From assembly GCA_000165345.1 (NCBI GenBank), contig CM000432.1, positions 992,001 through 1,056,000 on the forward strand: DNA of 64,000 nucleotides, given 5' to 3'. Positions 49,853 to 51,223 of the stretch are shown here, in pieces. A program made the translations under genes and the position numbers. Below the pieces are notes generated by a model. The model did not search any database and was not told the origin of the DNA. It was given only the letters and a program-made list of their open reading frames with translations. Each line of letters opens with the position of its first letter. Position 1 is the first letter of the stretch.

Positions 49853-51223
49853 CTATACAAACCTACCTGGATCAAATTGATGTGAAAAAACAAGTTGATT
49901 ATTGACGAGCTTGATTAAGGTAGTTTTTGAACAAAATGAGCATAGGCATCTCATCAGATACTTGGAAAGTTTAATAATTTGACTGAATTCAGGATCTTTC
50001 TTGTAAACTTGGAGAATTGATTGAATAATCCTTTTAGCTCCATATGCTGCAATGATATGAGAGTAAACCTCAGTTCTTTGACATGATTTAATTAGGACAA
50101 TTAAACCCTGTTGAACTATTTGATGATTATTAACATTAATATCGATAATTTCCAATATTTCCCTTATAATATCAGGATTGTTAAGTTTAAAGTCTTGAGA
50201 AGTGAATAGTATGGAAACATATATTGCCAATATATTTTCAATGAGAAATATATCTTGATTCTTCCCTAACTTTTTTGTAATTAATTCAAAAACTCCTAAT
50301 TTCAAAAACTCGTTACATGCGTTTAAACTTGATCTAATAAGAAATCTCAGAGCTGCAAACCCCCAAATTTGAGTTCTTTCATCAAGCTTTTCATCTTTTA
50401 AATATAGCATGATTTTTTTCCCAATATTAGAATCAATCCAAATCTATTATTAATAATTTGTAAAGAATTTCAAAAGGGAACCGTAAATAAAGTTTTAGCT
50501 GTTTTCAAAAGTGCCATATTGTTTTACTTACCTCGGATACGCTTAATGAATCGGATGACGAAATAAAAATTAATCTAAAAATTGCCAACAAAATCGAATT
50601 GTTCACTGAAGAATTCAAAATATTCTTCTCCAAATATGTAAATAGCTCCAATATTTCTGGAATAATCTATTATAATTTGAGTTTACAAGTTTTTTAAAGC
50701 TCATTCTTAATTATAGATTTCTTAAACTTACTATTGGAACCATTCTTTCGGAAACACCATCATTAAAAAATAAATGAGTTAGCAAAAAAATACATATTAG
50801 CACTATTTCAGGTGATTTCTTATGATATTTTATGGTATTTAATAATATTTCCACAGCTCCAGATTCACACATATGATTTCTTATTATCGAATTCCCATCA
50901 AGTGGGTCCAATAACTCTGTTATTTCAATTAGTCGCGATAATAAAAAAATTGTATCAACTTCAGAACGTAGCTGCCTTAATATCGAAATAATCCAAATGG
51001 CATGTAATTCTTTTATTTGAGGTTGAATAAACTCTGTAGATAAATTATGGGCTTTATTCCCAAAATTTATTCCTTCATAAGTTATTATGTCCCAGAAAGA
51101 CAATAATCGATTACCATTATGATTTCTAATAACAAATTTCTGAGATAATTCCAATCCATTGTTTTTTTTCTTTAATTTTATATTCTTTACTGCACCCTCA
51201 TCTTTTGAAACACAACATCCCAT
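49853..51223 (-). CDS. N-terminally acylated (MGCC) armadillo/HEAT-repeat protein, 3 exons (ARO/Vac8-like)
   Basis: Minus-strand exons are 51223-50732, 50666-50532 and 50443-49853. The introns are 50667-50731 (65 nt) and 50444-50531 (88 nt), both GTAAGT...TAG, and all junctions are in frame (405 aa). The protein starts MGCCVSKDEG (Gly2 myristoylation and Cys3/Cys4 palmitoylation consensus). It contains ARM-like helices (GAVEILLNTIKYH; IIPEILELFTYLEKNILNSSVNNSILLAIFRLI; LKLGVFELITKKL). The track lists exons 1 and 3 as separate ORFs (50711-51223 and 49853-50410). Confidence 0.6.

Follow-up and report, generated by a model that had tools for sequence, protein, structure and literature searches.

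The 64-kb window analysed here, the whole stretch of DNA under study, originates from chromosome 4 of Cryptosporidium parvum and has a G+C content of 26%. Its minus strand carries two open reading frames (ORFs) of 170 aa (50711-51223) and 185 aa (49853-50410), which, judged from the sequence and its conservation, are parts of one four-exon gene encoding a 426-aa armadillo (ARM) repeat protein. In the following we call it the armadillo gene. The locus tags of its orthologues (cmbei_4004260 and CHM_4g4250) place it on chromosome 4 and indicate that it is probably cgd4_4250/4260. Sequence comparisons place the predicted product in a distinct and so far uncharacterised family of acylated ARM proteins that is restricted to the Conoidasida and includes TGME49_242570 of Toxoplasma gondii. 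By the same comparisons it is not ARO, and it resembles ARO and Vac8 in architecture only. The best explanation, which we regard as probable, is that the protein serves as an acylated peripheral membrane scaffold anchored to an endomembrane.

Gene structure and gene models

All exons and introns lie on the minus strand. Exon 1 (50732-51223, 164 codons) encodes the MGCCVSKD start, a basic disordered linker and the first ARM helices. It is followed by intron 1 (50667-50731; 65 nt, GTAAGT...ATAG), which holds the stop codon ending the 170-aa ORF. Exon 2 (50532-50666) comprises 45 codons and encodes FRLIFISSSDS, the most conserved block of the family. Intron 2 (50444-50531) is 88 nt long and has the same type of boundaries, GTAAGT...ATAG. 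Exon 3 (49867-50443, 577 nt) encodes ARM repeats including WGFAALRFL and FLIEN and ends with ...QFDP. Exons 1, 2 and 3 join in frame, and read-through to the TAG at 49853 gives a protein of 405 aa, which is 93-100% identical to Cryptosporidium proteins. A third intron (49814-49866; 53 nt, GTAGGT...AAG) cuts out GRFV*, the last codons of this version, and exon 4 (49737-49813) encodes ALDNYGILDMDCISKNDPCQIQMWF and closes with a TAA at 49739-49737. The product of the four exons is residue for residue the C. parvum protein QOY42322.1/WRK31702.1, annotated as "Armadillo-like helical protein". An earlier inspection of the DNA, the sequence-only reading, had already joined both ORFs into one spliced gene with a 45-codon middle exon and two GTAAGT...TAG introns, and its coordinates and in-frame joins match those given here. 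It had arrived at three exons and 405 aa, however, since the third intron and the fourth exon were missed; according to the current annotation the product has 426 aa.

Conservation at the DNA level is in line with splicing. In alignments with C. meleagridis and C. ubiquitum, all four exons are free of gap columns, in contrast to 4-11 gap columns per intron (10-11 between species in intron 1), and the introns are of lower identity than the exons. Intron 2, for instance, shares 75% identity with its C. meleagridis counterpart and contains indels, compared with 91-96% for the exons on either side. Exon 4 aligns with the C. ubiquitum DNA without any indel at 83% identity, as opposed to 57% in the 3′ flank. 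Introns 1 and 2 break the same codons in C. bovis and C. serpentis, so that intron positions are kept out to a species whose protein is only 37% identical, and intron 3 is annotated at the same position in C. bovis. The length of 45 codons for exon 2 is matched exactly in C. bovis and C. serpentis despite intron lengths of 54-234 nt; intron 1 alone measures 54 nt in the former and 141 nt in the latter. Homologues from the transcriptomes of Selenidium, Polyrhabdina and Eleutheroschizon contain the equivalents of exons 1 to 3 in single ORFs.

The original Iowa II annotation, with its 185-aa protein XP_625440.1, implies two or three separate small genes at this place, which would make the joining coincidental. 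This reading draws on the older annotations of C. parvum Iowa II and C. hominis TU502 and on a recent C. hominis assembly, in all of which the 185-aa ORF alone is listed. Nevertheless, it is hardly conceivable in view of junctions that are in frame, introns with canonical GT..AG ends and lengths not divisible by three, and an indel pattern in exons and introns that favours splicing. Equally against it are the constant 45 codons of exon 2 in all species examined, together with the most conserved family motif within this exon, and the uninterrupted transcriptome-derived homologues. Finally, newer annotations of five Cryptosporidium species (C. parvum, C. tyzzeri, C. meleagridis, C. bovis and C. 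ryanae) give proteins of 425-427 aa. Several deposited orthologue models are thus truncated, namely those of 185 aa (Iowa II XP_625440.1 and C. hominis TU502), 405 aa (C. meleagridis UKMEL1) and 407 aa (C. ubiquitum). The C. ubiquitum DNA contains an intact exon 4 (...MDCISKNDP..MWF*) at about 2880-3010 of the locus that is missing from the annotation. As the armadillo gene is already correctly annotated with four exons in current C. parvum assemblies, the splicing pattern as such adds nothing new.

The MWF end of the short C-terminal tail encoded by exon 4 is kept in C. bovis and C. ryanae, and the tail is absent from C. serpentis and from the coccidian and gregarine homologues in our alignments. 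C. serpentis has a GTAAGT donor at the corresponding DP, yet a search of the sequence beyond it yielded no MWF-type exon, so the tail may be confined to the intestinal clade. The consensus of this clade, encoded by 49737-49813 on the minus strand, reads ...C-I-[SG]-K-x-D-P-x-Q-[IL]-[KQ]-M-W-F.

Acylation motif, armadillo core and family

The protein begins with MGCCVSKD. All eight Cryptosporidium species compared, C. serpentis among them, have an unchanged M1-G2-C3-C4, although residues 7-70 can hardly be aligned. As read from the sequence, GCCVSK fits PROSITE PS00008, G-{EDRKHPFYW}-x(2)-[STAGCN]-{P}. The MGC start is also kept in Selenidium, Cystoisospora, Hammondia, Neospora and T. gondii, where the 242570 protein starts with MGCTQS. 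An in-frame TGA at 51235-51233, four codons ahead of the ATG, means that no upstream in-frame start can displace Gly2 from position 2. The putative Gly2/Cys3/Cys4 acylation motif of the sequence-only reading is therefore borne out, as is its position at the very N-terminus.

The same applies to the ARM-repeat nature of the protein body, on which the AF2 model and fold comparison agree. Residues 1-76 have pLDDT values below 50 and form a disordered linker. Behind it, the core (approx. residues 77-380) is modelled mostly at 84-95 as an armadillo solenoid of about seven repeats, a right-handed superhelix of three-helix units, whereas confidence is low for the C-terminal tail. In Pfam, the only match was a sub-threshold one to ARM_ARMC5 (E 1e-4; 22 bits versus a cutoff of 79.9). 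Membership in ARMC5 was rejected on this score, and the match was taken as generic ARM similarity.

A HMMER search with the Cryptosporidium profile through 1.84 billion representative proteins matched only 11 of them. Outside Cryptosporidium, these were proteins of Selenidium serpulae (E 1e-11), Cystoisospora suis (2e-9), Hammondia (HHA_242570; 4e-9) and Neospora, and two further matches came from the transcriptomes of Polyrhabdina sp. (GHVP) and Eleutheroschizon duboscqi (GHVT) (PMC10304595). Plasmodium, piroplasms and non-apicomplexans gave no match at E 1e-3. The relationship to HHA_242570 was confirmed by hhalign over 265 columns (96% probability, E 2.4e-9), and T. gondii 242570 was retrieved with a wider profile. 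Both searches, seeded with family profiles, recovered only one member per species. The homologues share the motifs E-x-x-A-x-W, L-[DN]-P, H-x(3)-N-D, R-L-x-F-x(4)-D, W-x(3)-A-L-R-x-L and E-N, the columns of which are invariant or at least 90% conserved in an alignment of 11 sequences. E72, W77, P107, R115, F198, D203, W236, A240-L241-R242, L244, E278 and L372 are invariant, H150, N154 and D155 nearly so, and G2 and C3 are conserved in 10 of the 11 sequences. The R-L-x-F-x(4)-D block encoded by the small exon 2 is kept in coccidian and gregarine homologues alike.

This remote homology connects the Cryptosporidium protein with experimental data from Toxoplasma. TGGT1_242570 was reported as a high-confidence N-myristoylated substrate that carries the MG motif, was found with all three reagents and showed a significant response to NMT inhibitor (PMC7373427 supplementary file 4). 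The same study lists it as a Golgi protein by hyperLOPIT, with a predicted palmitoylation by CSS-Palm and a CRISPR fitness score of 0.18, i.e. dispensable in tachyzoites (PMC7373427). The EuPathDB orthologues tabulated there come from Hammondia and Neospora only and include none from Cryptosporidium, so the link was not recognised at that time.

From the motif, the fold and the Toxoplasma data we infer the following course of events for the Cryptosporidium protein, from its acylation to its location and scaffold role. After removal of the initiator methionine, co-translational N-myristoylation of Gly2 would confer a transient membrane affinity. A membrane-resident DHHC enzyme might then S-palmitoylate Cys3 and Cys4 and thereby trap the protein on the cytosolic face of one particular endomembrane. 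The lysine-rich disordered linker of about 75 residues (KNIKLKKKNN) would hold the solenoid off the membrane and may add electrostatic binding and reach. In this position the ARM solenoid could act as a protein-binding platform recruiting partners. By analogy with the Toxoplasma member, the membrane in question is most likely that of the Golgi or a post-Golgi secretory compartment and would not be the rhoptry surface.

Several points weigh against this picture. The coccidian homologues are only 17-20% identical, twice as long and interrupted by large low-complexity inserts, so that location and function may have diverged. TGGT1_242570 went undetected in two published Toxoplasma palmitoylomes, which leaves its palmitoylation a prediction (PMC7373427). 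Moreover, the hyperLOPIT assignment to the Golgi is a statistical one and not microscopy. In the literature we found no experiment on the Cryptosporidium protein, with cgd4_4250 and cgd4_4260 appearing in no searchable main text. Likewise, the papers searched contain no further characterisation of TGME49_242570, which is otherwise mentioned there only in a sporozoite transcriptome table.

Part of these points would suit a soluble cytosolic ARM scaffold, in which MGCC is unacylated or mediates only transient membrane contact without stable anchoring to an organelle. Acylation of the Cryptosporidium protein is predicted from the motif, and the Toxoplasma homologue is missing from the two palmitoylomes. 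On the other hand, the MGC(C) start is invariant or nearly so across lineages less than 20% identical while neighbouring residues drift, and for the Toxoplasma homologue myristoylation was shown by experiment and fractionation places it with the Golgi (PMC7373427). A soluble scaffold is thus unlikely. Very unlikely is an orthologue or equivalent of Vac8, i.e. an ARM adaptor held by acyl anchors on a compartment resembling a lysosome or vacuole and serving organelle contact sites, inheritance or autophagy. Searched against the PDB, the Cryptosporidium family profile found no ARM chain at E ≤ 10, neither ARO (5EWP) nor Vac8. In contrast, PfARO as a positive control (sequence from PMC7373427 supplementary file 4) reached 5EWP at 1e-166, ODAD2/ARMC4 at about 1e-12 and Vac8 at 7e-8. 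Vac8 ranked only 20th among generic ARM proteins, Pfam offered nothing beyond the sub-threshold ARMC5 match, and the family is found in Conoidasida only. Vac8 membership was rejected on account of the missing sequence relation and this low rank.

An ARO-type anchor would be a second, divergent ARO paralogue tethering the single Cryptosporidium rhoptry apically through acylation and an AIP/myosin partner. The architecture is indeed alike, with an acyl Gly2/Cys motif followed by ARM repeats only, and two ARO paralogues were reported from Chromera (PMC13432881). C. parvum, however, was reported to possess a sole ARO, cgd2_370, which is a rhoptry-localised, intronless 273-aa protein encoded on chromosome 2 (PMC13432881, 2026). 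An hhalign comparison of the family profile with PfARO spanned 22 columns at a probability of 0.7% and E 0.078. In Toxoplasma, TgARO is assigned to 'rhoptries 2' with a fitness score of -2.1, as opposed to Golgi and 0.18 for the homologue of the armadillo protein (PMC7373427). ARO orthology was rejected on the hhalign result, the missing 5EWP match and the existence of cgd2_370 as a separate gene. The anchor reading is already largely refuted and must be considered extremely unlikely. The sequence-only reading had described the protein as a candidate of the ARO/Vac8 type and had named best matches to an unrelated ARM family as one outcome that would speak against this. Comparison with ARO and Vac8 gave no relation, and the best matches outside Cryptosporidium belong to the TGME49_242570 family. 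Hence, the ARO/Vac8 assignment fails.

With the acylated endomembrane scaffold as the preferred reading, a more far-reaching idea can be put forward, although we rate it as rather doubtful. The armadillo gene and TGME49_242570 might represent a second, unrecognised family of dual-acylated ARM organelle tethers that anchor or position a Golgi-derived secretory compartment in the way ARO positions rhoptries. Such a family would extend across the Conoidasida (Cryptosporidium, gregarines, protococcidians and coccidia) and be absent from Plasmodium and piroplasms. If so, the core-only Cryptosporidium protein might be needed for biogenesis or positioning of secretory organelles.

Promoter elements and neighbouring genes

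The sequence-only reading had also pointed to an E2F box in the divergent promoter, and this element is present. The palindromic E2F-like box TGGCGCCA is located at 51428-51435, 205 nt upstream of the ATG and within a divergent intergenic region of 718 nt. It is kept in C. meleagridis and C. ubiquitum. At the orthologous place, C. bovis and C. serpentis have the half or variant sites GCGCCAAAAT and TTTTGGCGG, respectively, each followed by CATGTGG. In the entire window, TGGCGCCA occurs in six exact copies, compared with 0.03 expected from shuffles. In view of the copy excess and the cross-species conservation, the box is real and probably functional. No upstream motif is more abundant in C. 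parvum than the E2F-like type, which is over-represented in 163 of 200 expression clusters comprising 2,379 genes (PMC3734150). Being so common, the box says little about the armadillo gene in particular. The gene is not listed in the supplements of Oberstaller 2013. The six copies start at 12204, 19849, 27168, 29176, 34560 and 51428.

Two further features were noted downstream of the box. An CATGTGGC(A) element at approx. 51404-51418, 12-20 nt downstream of the E2F-like box, is kept in C. parvum, C. meleagridis, C. ubiquitum, C. bovis and C. serpentis and could serve as an initiator or as another cis element. An out-of-frame upstream ATG (51236-51234, minus strand) opens a putative upstream ORF of 12 codons (51236-51198) overlapping the main start codon. 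This ATG is kept in C. meleagridis and C. ubiquitum.

The gene order around the locus is conserved in C. bovis, C. serpentis, C. meleagridis and C. ubiquitum. It consists of a gamma-tubulin-complex gene, a divergent 315-aa hypothetical gene, the armadillo gene, an M16 insulinase-like protein and a DEAH helicase. The acidic 315-aa protein encoded at 51942-52889 on the plus strand has no Pfam match. It is syntenic in other Cryptosporidium species, with 299-316 aa, and shares the E2F-containing intergenic region with the armadillo gene. Farther along the plus strand, the ORFs 53415-54359 and 54751-57390 match GCP_N_terminal and GCP_C_terminal, respectively. Their counterpart in C. bovis and C. 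serpentis is a single gamma-tubulin-complex protein of 1215-1311 aa, suggesting that both ORFs are probably one gene split by one or more introns. Directly downstream of the armadillo gene lies a 1150-aa ORF (45652-49104, minus strand) that is syntenic in all species checked. Its sole match is to the Peptidase_M16_C inactive domain, which marks it as an insulinase-like protein.

Comparison with known acylated armadillo proteins

The nearest relatives, TGME49_242570 and its orthologues in Hammondia, Neospora and Cystoisospora, have in common with the Cryptosporidium protein the ARM core, the MGC start and the lack of any above-threshold Pfam domain. Nevertheless, identity amounts to only 17-18% in this comparison, and the coccidian proteins are considerably larger (825-890 aa). 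Their acyl motif is followed by a spacer of some 200 residues, their solenoid is interrupted by an acidic or low-complexity insert of roughly 100 residues, and their C-terminal tail comprises another 300 residues or so. The Cryptosporidium proteins, in turn, have an extra cysteine (C4) and the short conserved ...MWF tail. A small gain is the remote-homology link itself, which was not made by the orthology calls tabulated in PMC7373427. It carries the myristoylation evidence and the Golgi assignment over to the unstudied Cryptosporidium protein. It also defines a Conoidasida-restricted family whose compact 426-aa member is suited to structural or tagging work.

Generic ARM proteins such as FAP194/PF16, p120, beta-catenin, plakophilin, APC and designed ARM proteins are 9-16% identical and have no acylated N-terminus. 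Fungal Vac8 shares the type of N-terminal motif predicted for the MGCC start, a myristoylated glycine and palmitoylated cysteines in an SH4-like context. Yet it comes from a different lineage, has no sequence relation to the armadillo protein and ranks below many generic ARM proteins. Vac8 is also longer and has more ARM repeats.

A resemblance in architecture exists with ARO, represented by PfARO (PF3D7_0414900, PDB 5EWP), TgARO (TGME49_261440) and CpARO (cgd2_370), a protein of the rhoptry surface that positions rhoptries apically by way of AIP or MyoF. Both are apicomplexan proteins in which ARM repeats follow an acyl Gly2/Cys motif, and the cytosolic face of a secretory organelle, where ARO resides, is also the presumed location of the armadillo protein. 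The differences begin with size: ARO has approx. 273-275 aa and consists of ARM repeats only, whereas the 426-aa protein described here combines a 76-residue linker, a core of about 300 residues and a C-terminal tail. The C. parvum ARO gene is intronless and resides on chromosome 2, in contrast to the four exons of the armadillo gene on chromosome 4. ARO is present in all Apicomplexa including Plasmodium, while the armadillo protein family is found only in Conoidasida, and the Toxoplasma representatives differ in both hyperLOPIT compartment and fitness score. An acylated, ARM-only architecture in an apicomplexan is thus insufficient to call a protein ARO.
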